In this document: positions 1 to 32,456 of the stretch, in pieces
Numbering within the stretch: the stretch's first letter is position 1
Layout of the letters: the number at the start of each line of letters is the position of its first letter
NCBI GenBank assembly: GCA_964513375.1
Contig: CAZEMO010000008.1
Coordinates: forward strand, 85,556-149,555
Origin: an uncultured Bacteriovoracaceae bacterium
GTDB taxonomy: Bacteria; Desulfobacterota; Desulfomonilia; UBA1062
Length of the DNA: 64,000 nt
Direction of reading: 5' to 3'
Program-made: the position numbers and the translations under genes
Notes under the pieces: model-generated
Databases searched by the model: none
Told to the model about the DNA's origin: nothing
What the model saw: only the letters and a program-made list of their open reading frames with translations

Positions 1-309
1 GCACCCATGTATCTGGGAATAAAGGCCGTCCTTGCTGTAACATTTGCCAGGATACATCGTGCTAATCTGATCAACTTCGGCATCCTGCCTGTTACAATCG
101 ATGAGACTTCGTATCAGGCAATCAGGAGCGGAGATAAAATTCTGATATCCGGCATTCTCGGGGCACTTGACGGGACAGGTATTATCAAGATTGAGAACGT
201 CTCATCAGGAAACAGTATTGCAGGGAAGCTCACGGTCTCGGAAAGGGAAGCGGCTTTGCTTAAGAAAGGCGGCCTCCTCAATTATATCAAATCCATGGCA
301 GGTGATTAA
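1..309 (+). CDS. aconitase-family protein, C-terminal swivel domain (5' partial, continues upstream of window)
   Basis: Frame 1 is open from nt 1. The FARIHRANLINFGILP motif and the C-terminal tail resemble the C-terminus of aconitate hydratase. The stop is TAA at 307-309. Confidence 0.5.
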   Translation, partial: APMYLGIKAVLAVTFARIHRANLINFGILPVTIDETSYQAIRSGDKILISGILGALDGTGIIKIENVSSGNSIAGKLTVSEREAALLKKGGLLNYIKSMAGD

Positions 310-1715: not shown

Positions 1716-2335
1716 TACGGGTCATACCCTTTGAATCGCGCTATTTCAGCCTTCTGAGCTATATACTGGCTGACTATGATAAAGGAGAGTGTCTCATCAT
1801 CGATCCCGCCAGGGAGATTTCTTCATCTATCGAAAGCTCACTTAAAATAAAATCGGTGATCAACACACATATACATTTTGACCATACACTGGGAAATCCC
1901 TTTTTAGGCAGGCTGAGCCTCATAAAAGCACACAAGCTTGAAAATAAACCGCTCTATCGTCTTACAAATACCCTGATATCATCCGTGATGGCCCGCAAAA
2001 AGCCTCCGAAAACAAGTTTTTCGCTTAAGGATGGCGACGAGATCGCTCTGGGCGAGACAATAATTCGCATACTGCATACGCCGGGCCATTCACCGGGTTC
2101 CATCTGCCTTTACTGGGATGGCAATCTTATTTCAGGAGATACGATATTCACAGGGGGAATAGGCAGGACAGACATACCACTCGGAAGCAGCATGTCCATA
2201 AAAAAAAGCCTCGCAATACTTCTCGATCTGCCGGATGACACACTTATCTGGCCGGGTCATGTGTATGGGTCCAGATATCCTGTCACTCTGAAGGAAAACA
2301 GACGGGCAGTCGTCTGGTCTGTGAATTCTCTATGA
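1712..2335 (+). CDS. MBL-fold metallo-hydrolase (glyoxalase II-like)
   Basis: Metal-binding motifs are HIHFDHTLGN and HTPGHSPGS. The ATGA start overlaps gltX. Confidence 0.8.
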   Translation: MIRVIPFESRYFSLLSYILADYDKGECLIIDPAREISSSIESSLKIKSVINTHIHFDHTLGNPFLGRLSLIKAHKLENKPLYRLTNTLISSVMARKKPPKTSFSLKDGDEIALGETIIRILHTPGHSPGSICLYWDGNLISGDTIFTGGIGRTDIPLGSSMSIKKSLAILLDLPDDTLIWPGHVYGSRYPVTLKENRRAVVWSVNSL

Positions 2336-15452: not shown

Positions 15453-16166
15453 TTATCTATATGCTTCCTGAGAAGCGACAACAGAGAGTATCCACTCTCT
15501 TGCGGTTTCAGTTACGGATTTTGTCGCCGGTTCCCTGCCCAAAAGGACTTCAGCAAACTGGCGCAGCATCTTGGCGGTCGCACCCCAGATAACTCCGTCA
15601 ACTGTCTCCAGACAAAAAAGTTCGAATTCATGGCCTTTGATCGATGCCTTCTCCATCATCCACGCATCATCTGACAGCACATCGGCAAGGGGTAGAAAAA
15701 GAAGCGTCTCTGATTCACTGTTTATTTTAAGCTCATACGGCCAGGGGACAATTCCCACAGCAGGGGTGATATGAAAACTGGATATGGTAATATAGTCATC
15801 AAGCAGCCCCAGTACATCAACATCATGGGGTCTGAGACCTATTTCCTCTTCAGCCTCCCTCAGAGCTGTTTCAACAGGTGATGCATCATCGGGTTCTGCA
15901 TGGCCCCCGGGAAATGAAATCTCACCCTTATGGTGTTCGACGCTCATTGAACGTTTTGTAAGAATAATCTGCGGTCTGTCATCGATAAAAGAGATCGGCA
16001 CGAGCACGGCGGCAGGTTTCATCCTTCCTGCGAAAATCTCTTTTCTAGTCCTGTTTCCCAGTCTGGAGCTTATCAGATATGCCAGTTTCTCTCTGCTTGC
16101 CAACTCGTCCATAGCGAAACAATGTAGCATATTCAGAGGGTAATGAACAGTCTTGACCGCCAGCAT
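15453..16166 (-). CDS. NUDIX hydrolase, CoA pyrophosphatase-like
   Basis: The Nudix box is GGHAEPDDASPVETALREAEEEIGL. The start is uncertain. The longest ORF (to 16352) overlaps the divergent gene at 16191, so I chose the internal Met at 16166. Alternatives are 16130 and 16112. Confidence 0.65.
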   Translation of the reverse strand: MLAVKTVHYPLNMLHCFAMDELASREKLAYLISSRLGNRTRKEIFAGRMKPAAVLVPISFIDDRPQIILTKRSMSVEHHKGEISFPGGHAEPDDASPVETALREAEEEIGLRPHDVDVLGLLDDYITISSFHITPAVGIVPWPYELKINSESETLLFLPLADVLSDDAWMMEKASIKGHEFELFCLETVDGVIWGATAKMLRQFAEVLLGREPATKSVTETAREWILSVVASQEAYR

Positions 16167-16190
16167 TATTGCTGTGTATAGATATGGGTC

Positions 16191-16781
16191 ATGAAGACAA
16201 CTTACCCCATAGAAGAATTCATCGAATTCATGGAAGACATGATGAATGATCTGGATCAGCTTCTTGAAAGCCCGACGGTTGAGAAGAAATCCGCCATAAA
16301 GTGGAGAGAGGATACAAAGAAGAAAATTTCCACGGTCTTCGGAGAAAACCATCCGTATGTCAGGGAATTCGAGGCTATCGATTTTGCAACCCCGTTCATT
16401 GACGGTTCTGACAAAGTCATGGTCGAGGACACATACAGACTTGGACTTGAAGACGGGAAATCATATCTGATCGCCATGATGGATGAACTTGAAAGCGAAT
16501 ACTACAACGTATTCGGCATGATGGATATTGAGACAACTTTTTATGAGATGGGCAAGTACATAATTGCAAAGATAGAAGACCCCGCCGTCAGGGAAGACCT
16601 GCTTCAGAGAATCTCGATTCTGAGCGAGGGGCTCGTTTCCGGGGACATCGACGGCAAGGTCATATCCGAACAGCTCAGATACATAAGCCAGATGGACAAG
16701 GGCCTTTTTAAGATGATCGTTCCGGTCTTTGCATGGTATTATGTGGGTGCAGACAAATCAGGCGACACGATCCCGAACTGA
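16191..16781 (+). CDS. hypothetical protein
   Basis: 196 aa, acidic, with no recognisable motif. The codon usage matches the neighbouring genes. Confidence 0.45.
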   Translation: MKTTYPIEEFIEFMEDMMNDLDQLLESPTVEKKSAIKWREDTKKKISTVFGENHPYVREFEAIDFATPFIDGSDKVMVEDTYRLGLEDGKSYLIAMMDELESEYYNVFGMMDIETTFYEMGKYIIAKIEDPAVREDLLQRISILSEGLVSGDIDGKVISEQLRYISQMDKGLFKMIVPVFAWYYVGADKSGDTIPN

Positions 16782-16822
16782 AAAAGAAATACGACAGCAA
16801 ACCAAAAACATAAGGAGTAATA

Positions 16823-18394
16823 ATGCCAAAAATTGAGAGGGTATTGATCAGCGTAACAGACAAGGCCGGGATAGCCGCTTTTGCAAAAGACCTTGCTTCT
16901 TTCGGCGTGGAGATAATATCAACAGGCGGGACTGCAAAAATGCTAAGGGAGAGCGGCCTTGCCGTAATAGACATATCGGACTTCACCGGTTTTCCCGAGA
17001 TGATGGATGGAAGGCTCAAGACCCTTCATCCGAAAGTACACGGCGGCATGCTTGCACTCAGAAGCAACCCGGGACATGTGGCTTCGATGAAGGAGCACGG
17101 TATAAAGCCGATAGATATGCTTGTGGTAAACCTTTATCGCTTCGAAGACACAGTGGCCAAGGGCGCAGAGCTTCATGAGGCCATAGAGAATATAGACATC
17201 GGCGGGCCGGCAATGCTTCGCGCCGCATCAAAAAACTACGAATTCGTGAGCGTAGTCACGGATCCGGCAGACTATGCACCCATCATCGAAGAAATGACTG
17301 CTTCGGGAGGAGCCGTCAGCGCAAAGACCAACTTCAACCTTGCCAGAAAGGCTTTCTCCCTGACCGCCCGCTATGACGCTGCCATTTCGAATCACCTTCA
17401 GGGCATAGACGTGGAAGAAGGCCAGTTCCCTCTTACATATACCGTGCAGTATAACCGCAGGCAGATCATGAGATACGGCGAGAACCCGCATCAGAAGGCT
17501 GCCTTCTATGCCGAGACAAAAATCGATCAGCCTTCAATAGCAACTGCGGAACAGCTCTGGGGTAAGGAGCTTTCATACAACAACATCATGGACTCGGATG
17601 CCGCGCTCGATATGATAATGGATTTCGACAAGCCAGCGTGCGTCATTCTGAAACATTCCAATCCATGCGGGGCCGCACAGTCGGACTCATCTCTAGTAGA
17701 AGCCTACAGGAATGCATTCGCCGTCGATAAGGTCAGCGCATTCGGGGGCATAGTCGGACTGAACAGGATTGTCGATGCCGAGACCGCCCGGGCTATTGGA
17801 GAGGTGTTCACCGAGGTCGTCGTTGCGCCCGGTTATACCGACGAAGCCTTGAAGATTCTCGAAGAAAAGAAAAATATCAGATTACTTAACGTCCCTGAAA
17901 TACTTGCAGGTCCCAGCGCCAAAAAGCAGATGGCATCAACGCGCAGGGTTGTGGGCGGGCTTCTGCTACAGGACAGGGATATGGGGACCATCGACCTCAA
18001 AAATGCAAAGTTCGTCACAAAAAGAGCCCCGACCGCGGAAGAGCTTGAAGCGCTTCAGTTCGCATGGCGCATAGTAAAGTTCGTCAAGTCTAACGCCGTT
18101 GTCTATGCCTCAAAGAACCAGCTCATAGGCGTCGGCGCAGGACAGATGAGCCGTGTCGATTCCTCAAGGCTTGCTATCCTCAAAGCGGAAAATGCAGGGC
18201 TGTCGCTCAAAGGTTCGGTCGTTGCATCGGATGCTTTTTTCCCGTTCAGGGACGGCATCGACGAGGCAGCGGGTGCGGGTGCGACTGCGGTTGTTCAGCC
18301 GGGCGGATCGGTACGCGATGAAGAGGTCATCGAAGCTGCCAACGAGCACAATATGGCGATGGTATTTACAGGGATGCGACATTTCCGCCATTAG
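16823..18394 (+). CDS. purH: bifunctional AICAR transformylase / IMP cyclohydrolase
   Basis: [12 protein letters not shown]...[12 protein letters not shown] covers the MGS-like domain and the AICARFT domain. Length is 523 aa. Confidence 0.95.
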
Positions 18395-24863: not shown

Positions 24864-25643
24864 ATGCTGAGCAAGAGAATCATCATCTGCCTGGACGTGA
24901 GGAACGGCAAAACAACAAAAGGCGTAAAGTTCCTAAGCAACATCGACATCGGAGACCCTGTAAAAATGGCAAAAGAGTATTACGAGCAGGGAGTGGATGA
25001 ACTGGTCTTTTACGACATAACAGCCTCGTCCGACAAAAGGAACATCATGATAGATGTGGTCGACAGGGTCGCCCGCAACATATTCATACCCTTTTCCGTG
25101 GGCGGTGGACTCCGCACCATTGACGATATGTATCGCGTGCTTGACGCAGGCGCTGAAAAGGTAAGTGTTAACAGTGCGGCGGTCGAAAACCCCTCAATAA
25201 TTTCTGAAGGGGCCCGCGTTTTCGGAAACCAGTGCATAGTCCTAGGAATGGATGCCAAACATGTTGGGATAAGCGCGAAGATACCCTGCGGCTATGAAGT
25301 GTTCATCAACGGCGGCAGAACGCCTATGGGCATAGATGCCCTTGCCTGGGCGAAACATGCGGAAGATCTCGGCGCCGGCGAAATATGCCTTAACTCTATC
25401 GATGCTGACGGTACAAATGATGGCTATGAGCTTACTATAACCAGGATGATCTCGGATAGTGTTGGCATACCGGTCATTGCATCAGGAGGCGCCGGAAGGC
25501 CCGAACATCTGAGGGACGTGCTGTCTGCCGGAAACGCCGATGCCGCGCTTATCGCCTCGATGGTTCATTATGGCACATACACAGTCCGTCAGATAAAGGA
25601 ATATCTCGATAAGGAAGGTATCCCTGTAAGGAAAAAATGCTGA
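24864..25643 (+). CDS. hisF: imidazole glycerol phosphate synthase cyclase subunit
   Basis: Internal start after a [17 protein letters not shown]...[12 protein letters not shown]...SVGGG is the HisF TIM barrel. Confidence 0.85.
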
Positions 25644-26206
25644 TGAAAAAGACCATATTACTTTTCGTGGCTTTGGTAATGATATTCATCTTGGGATCAA
25701 GCGCTTCATATGCTTCCGGTCCGGCCGCATTGAAGCATTCTCCTCCTAAAATGCCTGAAAACAACGTCTACACCGACCCGTTCAGCTACTGCAACTGCGC
25801 CGGAACCATAGACGCTCCGGATAAGAGATATCAGGGAGAAAAAGTGCCCGATTCAATAGTACCAAGCATTCGAAAAGTCATGAAGCTAGGCAGCGACACG
25901 CCTTCCGATTATATAAAACAGACCACGTTCTGGCGCTGCATGGACAGAAAAGTCTTTGTCTGCATGGTGGGAGCAAATCTTCCCTGCAGGGAAAAAGCTG
26001 ATCTGAGAAAAATACCTGATGCTGCCATGAGGGATTATTGCGGGAACAACCCGGATGCGGATTTCATACCTGCCTATGTAACCGGCCGGTCAACCGTTTA
26101 CGAGTGGCGCTGTTCAGGAAAAGTTCCTGCCATATCCAAACAGCTGTTCAAGCCGGACGCCAGAGGCTTCATTTCCGATATCTGGTATGAGCTTCCGGCG
26201 CAGTAG
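25643..26206 (+). CDS. secreted Cys-rich hypothetical protein
   Basis: The start overlaps the hisF stop (TGATG). It has a signal peptide and ten Cys residues. Confidence 0.45.
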   Translation: MKKTILLFVALVMIFILGSSASYASGPAALKHSPPKMPENNVYTDPFSYCNCAGTIDAPDKRYQGEKVPDSIVPSIRKVMKLGSDTPSDYIKQTTFWRCMDRKVFVCMVGANLPCREKADLRKIPDAAMRDYCGNNPDADFIPAYVTGRSTVYEWRCSGKVPAISKQLFKPDARGFISDIWYELPAQ

Positions 26207-26220
26207 GTTTTTACCTATAC

Positions 26221-28431
26221 TCAATCGGATTTTAACACTTTTATCAGTTCAGGACTGTCCATGAAAAGCCTGATAACATCGATCATTTTACAGATAAGAG
26301 AAGAGAGGTCATAGAGGAATATCTCCTGATGAAGGAGTCCTTTCCTGTCTATGGCGGCGGCTTTGTCAGAAGTTTCTTTCTCAAGCAGGTTTTCACACTC
26401 CTTCCAGAGCATGGATGATTTTTCTTCAAGGGTACCGATGTCGCTTACAGCATCTCCTTTAAGCAGATTTTTCCAGTTATCATGCAGCATGTTCAAAAGA
26501 TTCATGGCCTCACCAACCGACTTTTCAATGTTTCTGTTCAAACCGTCCCCTCCGATGAATTTCAATATAAAGAAGACCGATACGAAATTACGGTAGATAT
26601 AATAGACTGCATCTTCGTTAAGAACAGGGTTGTTGAACTTCTTATCAAGGAAAAGCATGTCCCATTTCAGGTCCCGCAAAAGGTCTATGTAGCCCGAAGT
26701 CAGCCTTCTGAGGCTTGTCCAGGTTTCATCCATCTCATCGAAGGAGTCTGTCTTTCCGGTAACTATGCCGTTGATTATATCGAAACCCTTTATATAAATC
26801 GATGCAAGTCCGCCAATCGAAACCTCAAGCATACGCCTCAAGTTTACTGGAAGGACGAACTTCATGATAAGCGTCGCCATAAGCCCGCCGAATATCATCC
26901 CTGCAGTACTTTTCATGATCAGACTGTAATGTTCAGGCATGCCGGCCAGCGGCCCTATGCAAATGATGAATGTTATGCCGCCGTTGACTCCGATTGCACT
27001 CCAGTCCTCCTCGCCTAAACCGATATAGGAAAAAACAAAAAGTATTACGCTGATAACGCCGGTCATGAACAGATTTATATGGCCGGAAATATAAAAAAAG
27101 GCGAGACCTGCTGCGCTGCCCGCCACCGCGCCCAACGCCAGAAAAATAAATCTTCTCAGTGACTGCCCTTTGTATCCCGTATACGAAACCAGGACGGCAG
27201 GCACCATGGCCTGCATGCTCTTAAAAGGTATTACCCAGAGGATGACGGATAAAAAAACCGACAGCGCACCCTTGAACGCACCTGCCACAGCTTCAGAGTT
27301 AAACCTTTTCAACCTTGCAATACCCTCTTTCAACGATGGTTCGCTCCCCGATGAAGCGGGGACTTCAATTTTCATCCTGTTCCGGGACATCTTCGAAAGT
27401 TCAAGAAGTATCTTAACAAGATAAAACAGCAGCCTTATTCTGCTGAAAATAAGCTCCCGGCTCTTTCCTTCATGAGCAAGCCAGCCGTGAGGTTCAATGA
27501 TCTCACTGTTGAGGTGCGACTGTAACCCTGCCAGGGTTTCTCCATGTCCTGAAAGGTAACCGATGACATCTTTTGCAGGCGTGCGCAGTATTTCTTCCAT
27601 CATATCCGTGAGATTAATCAGGAAAGACGAACCGGCAAAGTCGTCATTTAGTTCTGCGGAATACTCTTCAGACATAATCCTGTGCAGATGAAGCATGTGG
27701 GAGAGCAAGGCCCTGCATAAAGAAACCGCGAGCCTGTATTGATCCTGACCTACTGCTGATGATTGTCCGATATTGGAATTCTGTATGAAATTGTTGGCCC
27801 TTTTCACCATTTTGCGGAATTCATACACTTCTTTTTCAATGTCGATCCCGGAGTTTCCCTTCAGGATATTTATTGAAATGTAGATGTTCTTTTTTATAAG
27901 GTTTCCCAGGCTCTTTGTAAGAACCTCTTCATCATTCACCGGAAAGACGAAATATACGACCGCCCAGGATATGCACACGCCTATCAGTATATCCAGCATC
28001 CTCAAAAAGGAACGGCTGAATGCCTGGTCTATCAGCGCATCGCCCATATAGGCTATAATCAGCGGCGTAAATGCCGCAAGCAGTGCGCCGAAAGGATATA
28101 TCCCGTTCATGCCTATATAGAACATTATGAATACCCAGAAGAAGCCAAGAACTGCGATGACAATGGGCTGCCCCTGGAACGTATATACAGCGAGAAATCC
28201 GGCAATGCATCCGATGACGGTTGCGGCTATGCGAATAACACCCTTGCTTATTGTCATCCTCATGGTGAGCTGCGTCGAAAGAAACGTGGTGAATACTATC
28301 CAGTAGCTGTTTTTAAGATCAAAGGCATATGAAATCAATTCGGCTATCAGGCATGCGATGCATGTTTTCAGGGCGAGCCTTAACCTGAGAGGGTCGGCCA
28401 GCTCGAATTTCAGGTATTCGGAAATCGTCAT
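26221..28431 (-). CDS. FUSC-family (fusaric acid resistance / aromatic acid exporter-like) membrane protein
   Basis: 736 aa with two multi-TM bundles separated by a cytoplasmic helical region. The N-terminal pattern is typical of YccS/FUSC proteins. Confidence 0.65.
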   Translation of the reverse strand: MTISEYLKFELADPLRLRLALKTCIACLIAELISYAFDLKNSYWIVFTTFLSTQLTMRMTISKGVIRIAATVIGCIAGFLAVYTFQGQPIVIAVLGFFWVFIMFYIGMNGIYPFGALLAAFTPLIIAYMGDALIDQAFSRSFLRMLDILIGVCISWAVVYFVFPVNDEEVLTKSLGNLIKKNIYISINILKGNSGIDIEKEVYEFRKMVKRANNFIQNSNIGQSSAVGQDQYRLAVSLCRALLSHMLHLHRIMSEEYSAELNDDFAGSSFLINLTDMMEEILRTPAKDVIGYLSGHGETLAGLQSHLNSEIIEPHGWLAHEGKSRELIFSRIRLLFYLVKILLELSKMSRNRMKIEVPASSGSEPSLKEGIARLKRFNSEAVAGAFKGALSVFLSVILWVIPFKSMQAMVPAVLVSYTGYKGQSLRRFIFLALGAVAGSAAGLAFFYISGHINLFMTGVISVILFVFSYIGLGEEDWSAIGVNGGITFIICIGPLAGMPEHYSLIMKSTAGMIFGGLMATLIMKFVLPVNLRRMLEVSIGGLASIYIKGFDIINGIVTGKTDSFDEMDETWTSLRRLTSGYIDLLRDLKWDMLFLDKKFNNPVLNEDAVYYIYRNFVSVFFILKFIGGDGLNRNIEKSVGEAMNLLNMLHDNWKNLLKGDAVSDIGTLEEKSSMLWKECENLLEKETSDKAAAIDRKGLLHQEIFLYDLSSLICKMIDVIRLFMDSPELIKVLKSD

Positions 28432-28636
28432 GTCAGCTAAATCGGAATAGAACCCGCCAGGTATAAATAAATATTTGTTCCTGCCCGAACATATACCATT
28501 TATAATTTACACATGGCGCTCAGGAAAAATTATCAAGCGGACATGCGCGATATCCTCGAAAATTCGACTGTATTCATAAAACAGTTTTCATCCTCAAAAA
28601 ATATGGTTACTATCTGAATCGATCCGGAGGTCAAAT

Positions 28637-29392
28637 ATGAAGGACGCACTTCTCCTGGGTATCTGGAAATACATCATGCGGGTGCCGGGTTTTGCATGGA
28701 AGTCTCAGGTCGGCAGCGCTGCAAAAGAAAACGCCTTCAGGCTGGATTTCATGACTGAAGATCATCACAGAATTCGTGATCTGGCAGTAACAGGGATTGC
28801 AGAAAAAGGCACACCGCTGACGCCGGAATATTTCTCGCAGTCATTAGGTATCGGCATCGCAAGAGTAAACGATATCCTGGCTGAACTCGAACGCCATATG
28901 ACCTTCCTGTTCAGAAATTCTGATGGTAATGTGGCCTGGGCATACCCGGTGACTGCCGACAAAACGCCTCACAGGCTAACATTCAGCACAGGAGAGCGAA
29001 TCTACGCCGCCTGAGCGGTTGACGCGCTTGCGGCGCCCTTCGTGCAGGGGCTTCTAAAAATGAGGGAACTTACGGTAAGTATTGAAACGGAATGCGCGTG
29101 CTGCAAAGAGACTCTTGTAATGGAGGTTGACAGCTCCATGAAATACAGGGTGCTCACCGCAGGAGCGGAACCCGTTGCGTTCGCACCCATGGTTGATTTC
29201 GACAGGCTCGATGAGCCAAGCATCATAAACTCTTTTTGAAAGCTTTCCGTTTTCTTCCGGTCGGAAGAACATGCAAGAAAATTCAGAAAGACAGGCAAAT
29301 GCTCCAAAGGGACCTATTTCAACCTGGACCAGGGCATGTACATAACCCCAATAATACAGGGCGCGCTCTTTGACGTAAACCGCAAAAGATAA
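28637..29392 (+). CDS. organomercurial lyase (MerB) family protein, candidate selenoprotein with two in-frame UGA (Sec) codons at 29012-29014 and 29237-29239
   Basis: GGAGG RBS 6 nt upstream. The single frame aligns with MerB along its length (DGNV ~ DGNI; RIYAA-U-AVDAL ~ RLYAW-C96-ALD99TL; INSF-U-KLSVFF ~ RQSF-C159-CHVHFF). Both TGAs fall at catalytic-Cys positions. A SECIS-like hairpin follows TGA2. Confidence 0.55.
29252..29269 (+). promoter_or_regulatory. candidate bacterial SECIS hairpin (TTCTTCC-GGTC-GGAAGAA) 13 nt downstream of the second in-frame UGA
   Basis: Perfect 7-bp stem with a 4-nt GGUC apical loop. The loop G/U lie about 23-25 nt from the U of UGA, as in E. coli fdhF. Confidence 0.45.
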
Positions 29393-29484: not shown

Positions 29485-29820
29485 CTATTTGATCAGAACA
29501 AGCAGCATTTTGAATCTGGTCACGGCCTTCAGCGCATGCGGATGATCGGCGGGCATGATTATCATCTGCCCGGCTTCAGTAAGATGTGGCTTGCCGTCAA
29601 TGATGACTTCAGCCTTTCCTTCAAGGATAAAGACCAGCGCATCAAACGGCGCGGTATGCTCACTCAGGCCCTCGCCCTCATCAAATGCGAATACGCTTAC
29701 CGTTCCAGCAGGCTTCCTTATTATCTCCCTGCTCACAACCGAATGAGCCTGATAGGCAGCCATACCTCCGAGGTCGATCGCTCTTCCCAGAATATCCGGA
29801 TTGACCTTGCTTTCAACCAT
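29485..29820 (-). CDS. cupin domain protein
   Basis: Start chosen at MVESK after an AAGGAG RBS. It has a cupin-2 fold (GEGLSEH...HALKA). Confidence 0.6.
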   Translation of the reverse strand: MVESKVNPDILGRAIDLGGMAAYQAHSVVSREIIRKPAGTVSVFAFDEGEGLSEHTAPFDALVFILEGKAEVIIDGKPHLTEAGQMIIMPADHPHALKAVTRFKMLLVLIK

Positions 29821-30339
29821 GTACATCTCCTTTTTTGATTTGAGTATTGCATAAAACAATCGGGCTTGATTTGACCTGGGTCAAACCATTTGAAGTAATT
29901 ATTTTTGAATGTCCCTTAATTTTGCAAAATTTCAGCTAAGATAAAATGAGAATCAGAGTTATCAATAATATTGTAATCTCTGTTTTATCTTATGATAATA
30001 TACTAACCATAGCTTTCTTGGTCCGCTTTCTCGCATGTATTACCAGCAATAAACATAGTGACATTGCTTATATTGCTAATATAGTTGATAAGTTATCCAT
30101 ATTACATGACTATTTTGCTGTGAACAACATTCTGTTTTTTCATTATTAACAACACACCTTTTCAAATTAAAATAACATAAATACTATATACAGTTGGTCT
30201 TTATTTAATACATATTGAATCTAAGGATCAAGAACTACAATCTTAGATTTTCCTCAAGTCCTGTAAAATATCATTCAAGTATTTCGAGTAGCAGATTTTT
30301 GAGATGCTGAAAGCATATCACAAATCCGCTAATCGATAC

Positions 30340-30380: not shown

Positions 30381-32456
30381 TTATCTGGGGCCAGTCCCTG
30401 TCTTGTAATAAGTCCTCATCGCATTTGCGAAATCCAGTTCCAGGGACTTTCCGTCAAAGTCGATGACGGTCTTTTCGGTTCCGAACTCCTGTGAGCAGTA
30501 TTTGTTGTCAAATCGCTTATAGGGGCCAATATCCACAGGACTGCCGTTTACCGTCATGGGGCCGTCCCATCCTACGCTAACAAGCCCCTGCGACGGCGAC
30601 TGATACGTTACGTCAAAACCTCTGCATTTTATTTTGGCATCTATTCCGGCATTGGTAAGGGCGCTTGTAAACGATTCGAATGAGCCATTCTCGGACATGC
30701 TCCCCATCTCGACGATATAGAAGTTGTGTTTTCCCGGAACCCTAAGTTCTATGCCGTTTTTCTGCCAGAACGGTTTGAAAAATGAGTAAAGACCGACATA
30801 ACCGTCATCTTTGCGGCCGAATACCCAGTGGCCCTTTGTGACGACTTCGTCGAAAGCCCATTTCGGGAAATATGCAAGGTTGTAGTATTCAGGCCCCATG
30901 GCAAGCATGAACAATTCGATCAGAGGCAGTTCGAGATTGCGGTCATACTGGATTATGCCCACGTTTTTATAAAGCGTGGCCCTCGGTTTCCAGCCGCCAA
31001 CATATTCCTCTCCCCTGAGAGTGGGGCCTGAGTTCGTGAAAACCGTGGCATACATATCGAGACTTCCCTGCCATATAAGCTCCTGCATGCTGGACATGCC
31101 CTTCTGGTGGTCCTGAACACCTGAGAGTTGATAGTCCGGCGTACGGTAAGTATATGTGTTGGGCGACTCGAGCATTATCCCTCTCGTCAGGTCGGCAAGC
31201 ATCTTGCTATACCCTGTCGGGTCAGTCAGATGCGCAATTGATGAAACTTTAATAAAAGTTGAAAAATCGTCGTCACTCATCCCGAGATCACTGCTTACAT
31301 CGGCGCCGAGGTTGTATTTGTCCATGAGCATGATGGAACCGTCAACCACATAGGGAGCGACCATGCCTGTCATCGTCCACCAGTATATGATATCTTCCTC
31401 CTTCGAAAAACCGACGTCAAAGCTGGCTGCATCGTCGAGAGACAGGCTCATTCTCTCTTTGTGTTCAATTGCCGGGGCGGCATCTGCTGCAATCTCCTCG
31501 AGTATTGCCGGGGGCACATAGCTGCTGGTGGCAAGGAAGGCAGCCGTAAAATGGCCGGGGTCGAGGTGAGTGCCAATCCCCAGCATGAGCCATGCCGTTT
31601 CATGGGTTGACTCCCTGTTTGGCAATTTGTCTGTGCCTAACCCAACTTCTTTACCATCTTCCGTGCGGCCATGGGCAGTGGCGTATGAGCCTTTGAAATA
31701 ATTGCATGCAAAATCAAAGGCCATCAGGTCGAGCAATATTGAGGCTTTTGCTGATATTTCGACATCGTCAGAGAAGTCCACCAGATTGATAAGTGCAGGC
31801 ATGGTCTCGTTATAGTAGATGTTGGAATGATACTCGGTAAACCCGAATTTTCCCCTGAAGCCAAGCCATGAATTGACCCAGTGCAACGCATGCTCTACAT
31901 GCTGAAGGCCGGTCATGCCTGAATTTGTAAATGTCTCATCGGGATATAGCCTTCCGGCCAGAAGTTCGGCTGTGTTGAACAGAATCTGGTGGTTTTCGGT
32001 CGTGGTTATCGTTTCGGTCTCACCCGGCTCGTCATACCAGTATCTGAAGTTGAGAACAGTAGTTTTCATCTTATCCCGCAGCTCTGTCGGCAGCGAGTTC
32101 GTGCTCCTGTCAATGCAAAGCATTCGGATGATCGCATTCAGCCCGAAATCCGCACAGTCCTTCCTGGCATCGGCCTTTGCGAGCGCTGCAAGTACAGGCG
32201 CTTCTGTTACCGGTTCTCCCTTTGCAACATGAACGACCTGCGCATAAAGGCCCTCACTTAAAAGGGCGTCGATTATATACTGAGATTTGCGCAATTGATA
32301 ACCCTCGCTTGGGGTGATCGGAACAGGCACTGCGATGCTGCTGGAATCTTGCTGAGGCGCAAGGTATTGATTATCCGGTCCGGAATTGTCGTTACCCGAA
32401 CAGCCTATGATAACCATTATTGTTAGAATAAAAGCTAAACCGAAATATTTCCTCAT
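30381..32456 (-). CDS. large lipoprotein, hypothetical (possibly polysaccharide lyase / heparinase II/III-like)
   Basis: Signal peptide with a lipobox (IIGCSG). 691 aa. The family call is weak. Confidence 0.55.
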   Translation of the reverse strand: MRKYFGLAFILTIMVIIGCSGNDNSGPDNQYLAPQQDSSSIAVPVPITPSEGYQLRKSQYIIDALLSEGLYAQVVHVAKGEPVTEAPVLAALAKADARKDCADFGLNAIIRMLCIDRSTNSLPTELRDKMKTTVLNFRYWYDEPGETETITTTENHQILFNTAELLAGRLYPDETFTNSGMTGLQHVEHALHWVNSWLGFRGKFGFTEYHSNIYYNETMPALINLVDFSDDVEISAKASILLDLMAFDFACNYFKGSYATAHGRTEDGKEVGLGTDKLPNRESTHETAWLMLGIGTHLDPGHFTAAFLATSSYVPPAILEEIAADAAPAIEHKERMSLSLDDAASFDVGFSKEEDIIYWWTMTGMVAPYVVDGSIMLMDKYNLGADVSSDLGMSDDDFSTFIKVSSIAHLTDPTGYSKMLADLTRGIMLESPNTYTYRTPDYQLSGVQDHQKGMSSMQELIWQGSLDMYATVFTNSGPTLRGEEYVGGWKPRATLYKNVGIIQYDRNLELPLIELFMLAMGPEYYNLAYFPKWAFDEVVTKGHWVFGRKDDGYVGLYSFFKPFWQKNGIELRVPGKHNFYIVEMGSMSENGSFESFTSALTNAGIDAKIKCRGFDVTYQSPSQGLVSVGWDGPMTVNGSPVDIGPYKRFDNKYCSQEFGTEKTVIDFDGKSLELDFANAMRTYYKTGTGPR

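Follow-up and report, generated by a model that had tools for sequence, protein, structure and literature searches.

We describe a gene for a protein of the MerB (organomercurial lyase) type in which both catalytic cysteine codons are replaced by in-frame UGA codons. It lies at positions 28637 to 29392 of a stretch of 64,000 nucleotides, here called the window, from an uncultured bacterium labeled Bacteriovoracaceae (GTDB lineage Bacteria; Desulfobacterota; Desulfomonilia; UBA1062; GenBank assembly GCA_964513375.1, contig CAZEMO010000008.1, positions 85,556 to 149,555 of the forward strand). The gene is very likely functional, its product being an enzyme of 251 residues with the MerB fold and two selenocysteine (Sec) residues, each UGA codon being served by its own selenocysteine insertion sequence (SECIS) hairpin. 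An initial annotation of the window had proposed that both catalytic Cys of this MerB homolog are UGA encoded and read as Sec. The proposal is now supported by conservation of both UGA codons, by selection on the hairpins, and by purifying selection on the protein, all of them signals read from nucleotide and protein sequences.

MerB fold and active-site positions

The frame has exactly two internal stops, both TGA (codons 126 and 201), and translation gives 251 codons followed by TAA, just as the initial annotation had read it (about 251 residues, two TGAs). With Cys placed at both TGAs, the product matched the Pfam family MerB (PF03243) with 52.2 bits (E = 7.6e-14; gathering score, 27), and so did all 12 family members tested. 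A profile of the family was compared by hhalign with R831b MerB, for which a reference sequence 100% identical to PDB entries 1S6L/3F0O/3F0P was used, and the two aligned with a probability of 95.9% (E = 5.6e-9). In this alignment, codon 126 corresponds to Cys96, Asp129 to Asp99, codon 201 to Cys159, and Cys153 to Cys117. Homology to MerB over the whole protein had been claimed in the initial annotation, together with the placement of the first TGA on Cys96, with Asp kept at +3 (Asp99), and of the second on Cys159; the profile methods recovered the same homology and the identical alignment.

In MerB, a pair of thiolates coordinates the mercury of R-Hg+, with Asp99 as proton donor to the carbon. 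Asp is found at codon 129 in 83 of the 83 sequences aligned (see below), and Cys153 and Cys156 are conserved in 100% and 95% of them. At the sequence level, the catalytic triad of MerB is retained as chalcogen nucleophile, Asp, and chalcogen nucleophile.

The fold was addressed with an AlphaFold2 model of the ortholog P0003, with Trp at both TGA sites (predicted local distance difference test score, 87.5; predicted template modeling [TM] score, 0.86). In a Foldseek search of the PDB, the top 11 matches of the model were all MerB or MerB2, with target TM-scores of 0.74 to 0.82 for ten crystal structures and 0.61 for a nuclear magnetic resonance model, and the match spans the whole MerB structure. 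From rank 12 onward, the N-terminal part resembled winged-helix domains of the MarR type. A direct sequence search of the PDB reached MerB2 only (E = 0.12); canonical MerB was reached by profile comparison.

Conservation of both UGA codons

One genome per GTDB species was scanned for the gene, which gave at least 309 relatives, and the best 80 of the 309 were examined at the DNA level. In all 80 loci (42 to 94% identity), both sites were TGA and the frame was otherwise open up to its natural end, which lay at codons 242 to 261 or later. In a codon alignment of 83 sequences, comprising the window gene and 82 orthologs (80 genome derived and 2 metagenome derived), UGA-1 was TGA in 83/83 and UGA-2 was TGA in 83/83. 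The amino acids 3' of both TGAs were conserved across this alignment, with synonymous codons free to vary outside the hairpins described below. Moreover, when the window gene was compared with its 94% identical relative L004, the ratios of synonymous to nonsynonymous differences were 17:4, 13:6, and 9:2 before, between, and after the TGAs. Synonymous differences prevail in all three segments, and therefore all three are translated and under selection. The initial annotation had held two chance nonsense mutations to be very unlikely and had named stops or frameshifts elsewhere in close relatives as the sign of a decaying pseudogene; the shared TGAs and the purifying selection past both of them bear out the former view, and extra stops or frameshifts were absent from the close relatives. 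Its statement that TGA is an ordinary stop in a genome that is not recoded also holds, since TGA ends 20 of 52 long open reading frames (ORFs) of the window (TAA, 17; TAG, 15).

Metagenomes were scanned with hairpin 2 alone, the codon upstream being entered as TGN so that its third base could vary, and at least 120 contigs were recovered. Among the contigs listed, TGA was present at site 2, 15 nt upstream of the hairpin, in 120 of 120, and site 1 was TGA in 90 of the 91 in which it could be located. In contigs L091 (around 1931-1965, minus strand) and L099 (around 224-258, minus strand), the site-2 TGA and hairpin are present and the upstream frame is not family-like, being interrupted by several stops or belonging to a different protein that ends 8 codons earlier; gene fragmentation, rearrangement, or chimeric assembly may explain these contigs.

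Related genes were also surveyed for Cys at the two positions, a check that the initial annotation had suggested. Beside the 80 loci with TGA at both sites there is a minority lineage with Cys (TGC or TGT) instead of UGA-1. These C..U forms are L003, L084, L085, L087, L090, and L126, and site 2 was TGA in all four C..U forms examined. More distant relatives (P0059, P0064, and P0066) are full length, contain no TGA, and combine Ser at site 1 with Cys at site 2 (S..C forms). Cys homologs thus exist at both Sec positions: at site 1 in the C..U forms, at site 2 in the S..C forms, and at both in MerB and MerB2. The Ser codon of the S..C forms, TCA, is one step from TGA. Other distant full-length relatives (P0065, P0067, P0072, P0121, and P0140) have no TGA and neither catalytic residue, their Cys lying at another place (FFCSEEHA), and may represent noncatalytic or differently wired paralogs.

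The two sites account for the lengths of the database proteins. The 58 homologs recovered by a protein search fall into three groups by length: those of about 150 residues stop exactly ahead of site 1, those of about 200 residues, with Cys at site 1, stop exactly ahead of site 2, and those of about 250 residues, seemingly full length, have Trp at both sites. The DNA of the latter has TGA at both Trp sites, and the genuine Trp codons of the same genes are TGG; the Trp residues are there because the gene callers used code 4. This translation artifact of the JGI and ENA callers affects P0001-P0003 and P0005-P0013, as well as L001 (59-805) and L002 (515-1273); it arose on short contigs, conceals the Sec codons, and could mislead alignments. 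An exhaustive hidden Markov model (HMM) search of 1.84 billion cluster representatives gave 793 matches, and most of the best 150 of the 793 end at profile position 125 or 200. NCBI entries of the family are truncated "hypothetical proteins."

The sequence around UGA-1 (window 29009-29015) is constrained: the Ala codon before it is GCC or GCT in 71 of 73 sequences, and the TGA is followed by G in 83 of 83. UGA-2 is followed by A or C in 82 of 83.

Two hairpins downstream of the UGA codons

Searches of the bSECISearch type look for a stem-loop 3' of the UGA with G-U in the apical loop, about 16 to 37 nt from the UGA. Both UGA codons are followed by such a stem-loop (Table 1), with G-U within both loops at 23 to 32 nt from the U of UGA. 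The stem of hairpin 1 begins 23 nt and its loop 29 nt after the U of UGA-1, the loop CGUGC covering +29 to +33; the family stem is (G)CCCUU / AAGGG(C), in which RNAalifold found 5 pairs with G·U wobble changes only. Hairpin 2 begins 15 nt after the U of UGA-2 and has a consensus 7-bp stem, UUCUUCU / AGAAGAA, with the loop GGUC at +22 to +25. We take this loop to resemble that of the Escherichia coli fdhF SECIS element.

Selection at the RNA level was assessed from codon-usage entropy at amino-acid-conserved positions of the 83 aligned sequences. Only codons 134-138 and 206-211 had an entropy near 0 bits; at all other conserved residues it ranged from 0.7 to 2.4 bits. At codons 134-138, we found CCC in 80 of 81 sequences, TTC in 83/83, GTG in 83/83, CAA in 76 plus CAG in 7, and GGG in 83/83. 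At codons 206-211 (Phe-Phe-Trp-Ser-Glu-Glu), the counts were TTC 83, TTC 82, TCA 74 plus TCG 9, GAA 82, and GAA 73 plus GAG 8. The exceptions in hairpin 2 include compensatory double changes at two pairs, from U-A to C-G (9 sequences, including the window) and from C-G to U-A (1 sequence). Wherever residue 208 is Arg instead of Trp (CGG for TGG, the state of the window gene), Ser209 is encoded by TCG and not by TCA (9 sequences), and in a single sequence TTC became TTT jointly with GAA becoming AAA. Selection on the RNA is indicated because synonymous sites are frozen and the stem covaries.

Folding of the window sequence gave z = -2.25 for hairpin 2 compared with shuffles. After UGA-1, single-sequence folding was no better than for shuffles (z = +1.18 and -1.01), and hairpin 1 is supported by the comparison among orthologs. 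Of the 7 forms in which site 1 is Cys, 5 have a decayed hairpin 1 (L003, L085, L090, L126, and one TGT contig; for example, GGG to TCG), and hairpin 2 was intact where examined. This decay, like the TGA found at site 2 of all 120 contigs selected by hairpin 2, links the hairpins to the UGA codons. Taken together, both hairpins behave as two SECIS elements would.

The nucleotides of the hairpins are almost identical across phyla in proteins that are only about 45% identical, which is unusual for bacterial SECIS elements, as these normally drift. The near identity suggests that the protein motif and recognition by SelB both constrain these sequences tightly.

Distribution and gene neighborhoods

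The two-Sec MerB-like family belongs to anaerobe-rich lineages (Anaerolineae, other Chloroflexota, Desulfobacterota, Acidobacteriota, Binatia, and others). By database label, about 39 of the best 80 of the 309 relatives are Chloroflexota and about 19 are Desulfobacterota or "delta proteobacteria"; the remaining carriers are Acidobacteriota, Binatia, Rokubacteria, Nitrospirota, Gemmatimonadota, and others. The closest relatives of the window gene are L004 (CAYNVT010000047.1, 94%, labeled Bacteriovoracaceae) and L005 (CAXXDQ010000007.1, 71%, Desulfomonilia). The label Bacteriovoracaceae for L004 looks doubtful, as does Enterobacteriaceae for L070.

Gene neighborhoods were clustered from 769 ORFs at about 84 loci. 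The immediate neighbors (n = 121) included 5 MarR-family and 4 MerR-family regulators, 3 short-chain dehydrogenases/reductases (SDR), and 3 major facilitator superfamily transporters. The MerR-family genes directly upstream at four loci (Table 1) encode conserved proteins of 172 to 193 residues with a conserved Trp/His-rich C-terminal domain (DKWHxEFE...HQEFLE); three of these loci are of the Desulfobacterota type and one is from Nitrospirota. MarR-family regulators occupy the same upstream position in L051, L064, and L072. A few of the neighbor-gene clusters of the window recur in one or two other loci.

Setting of the gene in the window

The MerB-like gene is monocistronic, its flanking genes are on the opposite strand, and its surroundings are housekeeping-like (hisF, tsaC, gltX) rather than mobile-element-like. 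The initial annotation had described it as standing alone, with no merA, merT, merP, or merR, beside a FUSC exporter and a cupin protein, and the ORF annotation of the window agrees.

Table 1. Coordinates of the MerB-like gene and its elements, of its neighbors in the window, and of regulator genes at related loci
Feature	Position	Strand	Evidence
Predicted coding sequence of the two-Sec MerB-fold selenoprotein, 251 residues (ATG, 2 in-frame UGA, TAA)	28637..29392	+	Translation, Pfam, hhalign, fold matches
Shine-Dalgarno sequence GGAGG, 6 nt 5' of ATG	28626..28630	+	Read from sequence
UGA-1, codon 126, predicted Sec at MerB Cys96 position	29012..29014	+	Conservation, hhalign
Asp129 codon GAC, MerB Asp99 position (MerB proton donor)	29021..29023	+	Asp in 83/83, hhalign
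SECIS-type hairpin 1, G-CCCUU / CGUGC loop / AGGGG-C, codons Pro134-Phe-Val-Gln-Gly138	29035..29051	+	Codon entropy, RNAalifold
Cys153-x-x-Cys156 motif (family, TECAHCG; window, TECACC)	29093..29104	+	Conservation; Cys153 on MerB Cys117 (hhalign)
UGA-2, codon 201, predicted Sec at MerB Cys159 position	29237..29239	+	Conservation, hhalign
SECIS-type hairpin 2, UUCUUCC / GGUC loop / GGAAGAA, codons Phe206-Phe-Arg/Trp-Ser-Glu-Glu211	29252..29269	+	Covariation, codon entropy
True stop codon TAA	29390..29392	+	Read from sequence
FUSC-family exporter, neighbor	26221-28431	-	ORF annotation
Cupin_2 protein, neighbor	29485-29859	-	ORF annotation
MerR-family regulator, directly upstream, co-directional	L040 9413-9928		
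MerR-family regulator, directly upstream, co-directional	L059 9394-9924		
MerR-family regulator, directly upstream, co-directional	L066 9373-9948		
MerR-family regulator, directly upstream, co-directional	L068 2981-3559		

Two further window proteins had no Pfam or NCBIfam match, namely, a predicted lipoprotein of 691 residues (30381-32456, minus strand) and a Cys-rich secreted protein of 189 residues (25637-26206, plus strand). The window was also inspected for other read-through selenoprotein genes. The sole candidate outside known ORFs (15453-16760, minus strand) was rejected, as it proved to be a Nudix-like gene with a noncoding upstream stretch. This Nudix-like ORF of 299 residues (15453-16823, minus strand) is open upstream in frame past a TGA at about 16463, and the upstream translation looks noncoding; about 470 bp at 16352-16823 are without a convincing gene. 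The window ORFs of the size of SelA or SelD are gltX, thrC, ahcY, galE, a GPH transporter, and similar genes.

Proposed function and alternative explanations

We hold with high confidence that the gene encodes a real two-Sec MerB-fold selenoprotein. That it is also a catalytic organomercurial or organometal lyase is suggested by analogy with MerB, and we rate this as slightly less likely than not. In the proposed mechanism, SelB would bring Sec-tRNA(Sec) to each hairpin loop, and Sec would be incorporated at codons 126 and 201 instead of termination. The folded protein would present Sec126, Asp129, and Sec201 as MerB presents Cys96, Asp99, and Cys159. By analogy with MerB, an organometallic substrate such as methylmercury would be bound through its metal by the two selenolates; the leaving carbon would take up a proton from Asp129, and the bis-selenolate site would keep the metal ion. 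Cys153-x-x-Cys156 is a candidate site for metal hand-off, in which the family-specific Cys156 would pair with Cys153, the equivalent of Cys117. Selenolates should be fully ionized at neutral pH and have a higher affinity for soft metals, which would favor the capture of trace organomercurials. A wider reading, which we consider rather unlikely, is that this stand-alone two-Sec enzyme is the missing catalyst of methylmercury or organometal degradation independent of mer operons in anoxic sediments, soils, and groundwater; its bis-selenolate site would let Anaerolineae, Syntrophia, Desulfomonilia, and Binatia capture and cleave trace organomercurials.

Several observations weigh against the proposed decoding or function. 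Neither the 64-kb window nor the flanks (about 20 kb) of 60 related loci contained a recognizable tRNA-Sec, and no selA, selB, or selD was found among the window ORFs tested or in the same flanks. Rfam gave no match at gathering thresholds across the window, and a permissive Rfam scan of 28950-29350 returned no SECIS family and only a spurious match to a long noncoding RNA. The hairpins are short (5 to 7 bp) and made of conserved amino-acid motifs, so that their sequence conservation is partly protein driven. No mer genes were seen among the annotated window ORFs, which leaves the substrate without a pointer, nor were any present among the 121 immediate neighbors of related loci. A conserved operon was not apparent either: no neighbor family occurred in more than 9 of about 84 loci, the recurrent ones were generic (SDR, histidine kinase, hydrolase), and the clustered neighbors of these loci included no gene of the SAO locus, the neighborhood of a related selenoprotein discussed below. 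The four upstream MerR regulators lack the Cys residues with which sensors of Hg, Cu, or Zn bind their metal. Finally, Hg-Se bonds are very strong and product release would be hard; a bis-selenolate would bind Hg(II) extremely tightly, and catalytic turnover and metal release are therefore questionable. The missing sel genes near the locus are uninformative, because the Sec machinery need not be linked to the gene. Thermodesulfobacteriota, the phylum of the closest Desulfomonilia relatives, are described as among the most selenoprotein-rich groups.

Three alternative explanations carry little weight. A MerB-homolog pseudogene decaying through two nonsense mutations would account for the two in-frame stops and for databases that hold truncated hypothetical-protein fragments only, but the same two TGAs recur in every one of the 80 loci without other stops or frameshifts, all three segments are under purifying selection, and residues 3' of the TGAs are conserved while their synonymous codons vary. 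The shared TGAs, the codon conservation, and the segment-wise selection refute this explanation, and we give it practically no weight. Slightly less negligible, and still very improbable, is a reading of TGA as a standard amino acid (Trp or Gly) through an alternative code or generic read-through. The JGI and ENA callers did produce full-length proteins with Trp at both sites, but TGA terminates many window ORFs, the carriers are spread across many standard-code phyla, and genuine Trp in the same gene is encoded by TGG; moreover, the TGAs coincide with the positions of the catalytic Cys, relatives have Cys codons in their place, and a dedicated hairpin follows each TGA. It is also improbable that the UGA codons are mainly regulated terminators, with a 125-residue N-terminal winged-helix fragment as the usual product and the full-length protein made only with selenium. 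UGA-Sec decoding always competes with release factor 2, and the N-terminal part is MarR-like in fold searches, but the 125 codons downstream are under selection no weaker than that on the N-terminal part, the N-terminal region of MerB belongs to the enzyme fold, and no evidence was found for an independent function of the fragment.

A weightier alternative, which we regard as quite possible without favoring it, accepts the two-Sec MerB-fold selenoprotein and denies that it is a catalytic organomercurial lyase. It could be a trap or chaperone of very high affinity for Hg(II) or another soft metal, it could cleave other carbon-metal(loid) bonds (tin, lead, arsenic, or cobalt), or Sec126 and Sec201 could form a selenenyl-selenide redox couple. 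The missing merA, merT, merP, and merR partners, the lack of a conserved operon, the chromosomal setting among housekeeping-like genes such as hisF, tsaC, and gltX with no mobile element, and the strength of the Hg-Se bond, which would hamper product release, are all in line with this. Moreover, the window protein scores far under the cut-offs of the MerB equivalog models NF009710 (48.9 versus 193 bits) and NF033555 (40.6 versus 200 bits), and relatives exist that have Ser at site 1 or neither catalytic residue. For the MerB-like selenoprotein SaoL, Haft and Gwadz argued that Sec at the metal site may shift substrates away from mercury and serve metabolism, not resistance (bioRxiv 10.1101/2022.07.06.499078). 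The points that favor a lyase are that the full triad is kept at both UGA positions and at Asp129, whereas a pure metal trap needs no proton donor, and that the fold match covers the entire MerB structure.

Significance

The family spans at least 309 genomes at the species level, 793 cluster representatives, and at least 120 metagenome contigs. Its members are at present recorded as "hypothetical" fragments of 125 or 200 residues or as code-4 Trp artifacts, and recognizing both Sec codons corrects these database entries. The selenoprotein catalogue gains a family with two widely separated Sec residues, which is rare among bacterial selenoproteins. With both metal ligands of the MerB triad as predicted selenolates, the family offers a natural experiment on the substitution of selenium for sulfur in the cleavage of carbon-metal bonds. 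If the reading as the missing catalyst is true, it would be the first enzyme known with two Sec residues as paired metal ligands of one catalytic site. The carriers come from anoxic habitats where methylmercury is made and destroyed, so that the gene is a concrete candidate for mer-independent demethylation, and its possible function gives the family obvious relevance to organomercury cycling in anoxic environments. The SECIS-type hairpins, near-invariant across phyla and overlapping motifs of the catalytic core, are a clear case of dual protein and RNA coding and serve as a 17- to 18-nt probe for gene finding.

Comparison with known systems

The closest solved structure, both by sequence (profile E = 8.4e-6) and by fold (target TM-score, 0.82), is MerB2 of Bacillus megaterium (PDB 5C17). 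Its two active-site Cys align with the two UGA codons; it differs in having Cys at both sites and Ser replacing Asp, and it is encoded in a mer resistance locus. MerB of plasmid R831b (PDB 3F0P and related; EC 4.99.1.2) has the same fold (target TM-scores of 0.74 to 0.78 for crystal structures; E of about 1e-11), and its Cys96, Asp99, Cys159, and structural Cys117 align with U126, D129, U201, and C153. In contrast to R831b MerB, to which identity is about 18%, the window family has Sec for both metal-ligating Cys, Lys or Arg instead of Cys160, an additional CxxC partner (Cys156), an N-terminal extension of about 38 residues, and no mer operon.

Among selenoproteins, a 2026 review lists 119 prokaryotic families or subfamilies, of which a small subset contain two or three Sec residues (PMC13188914). 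One of them, the UxxU metal-binding protein NF041115 (PMC13188914), also pairs two Sec residues, presumably as joint ligands of a soft metal, but these are three residues apart, whereas those of the window family are 75 codons apart, have a SECIS-type hairpin each, and would be joined by the fold. SaoL, a CU protein with one Sec, is the sole MerB-like entry among the 119 families, and none of them matches the window family.

SaoL (NCBIfam NF040728) is described as a MerB-like organometallic lyase selenoprotein of about 50 anaerobic species, mostly Firmicutes, and marks the nine-gene SAO locus, with the ABC transporter SaoABP and SaoE, SaoC, SaoT, and SaoD in its neighborhood (bioRxiv 10.1101/2022.07.06.499078). 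According to the same authors, no selenoprotein is known in the characterized mercury-resistance families (bioRxiv 10.1101/2022.07.06.499078). The window protein shares with SaoL the MerB superfamily (PF03243), a UGA-encoded Sec at the Cys159 position, Asp at the Asp99 position, occurrence in anaerobes, and UGA-truncated database entries. However, SaoL has a single Sec, in a Cys-Sec (CU) pair, and Cys at the Cys96 position, whereas the window protein has predicted Sec at both positions, and site 2 of its family reads [FY]-U-[RKH...] without an adjacent Cys. SaoL is also embedded in a nine-gene locus, whereas the window family has no conserved neighbors, and its roughly 50 species, mostly Firmicutes, stand against at least 309 species-level matches, the best 80 of which are mostly Chloroflexota and Desulfobacterota. 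The window protein matched the SaoL model with 47.8 bits against a cut-off of 140; all 12 members tested matched this model, and the scores listed (47.8 and 36.2 bits; best E value, 2.8e-13) were far below the cut-off. No model of NCBIfam release 20.0 claims the window family, and the searchable full-text literature on MerB or alkylmercury or organomercurial lyase together with selenoprotein or selenocysteine held nothing besides SaoL.

The initial annotation had supposed that a Sec-containing MerB was not an established family, and this part has to be withdrawn: SaoL already is one, with a single Sec at the Cys159 equivalent, and because it is known, the concept of a Sec-containing MerB is not unprecedented. 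What is new, within the literature searchable, is only the double-Sec, non-SAO MerB-like family, which had not been catalogued.

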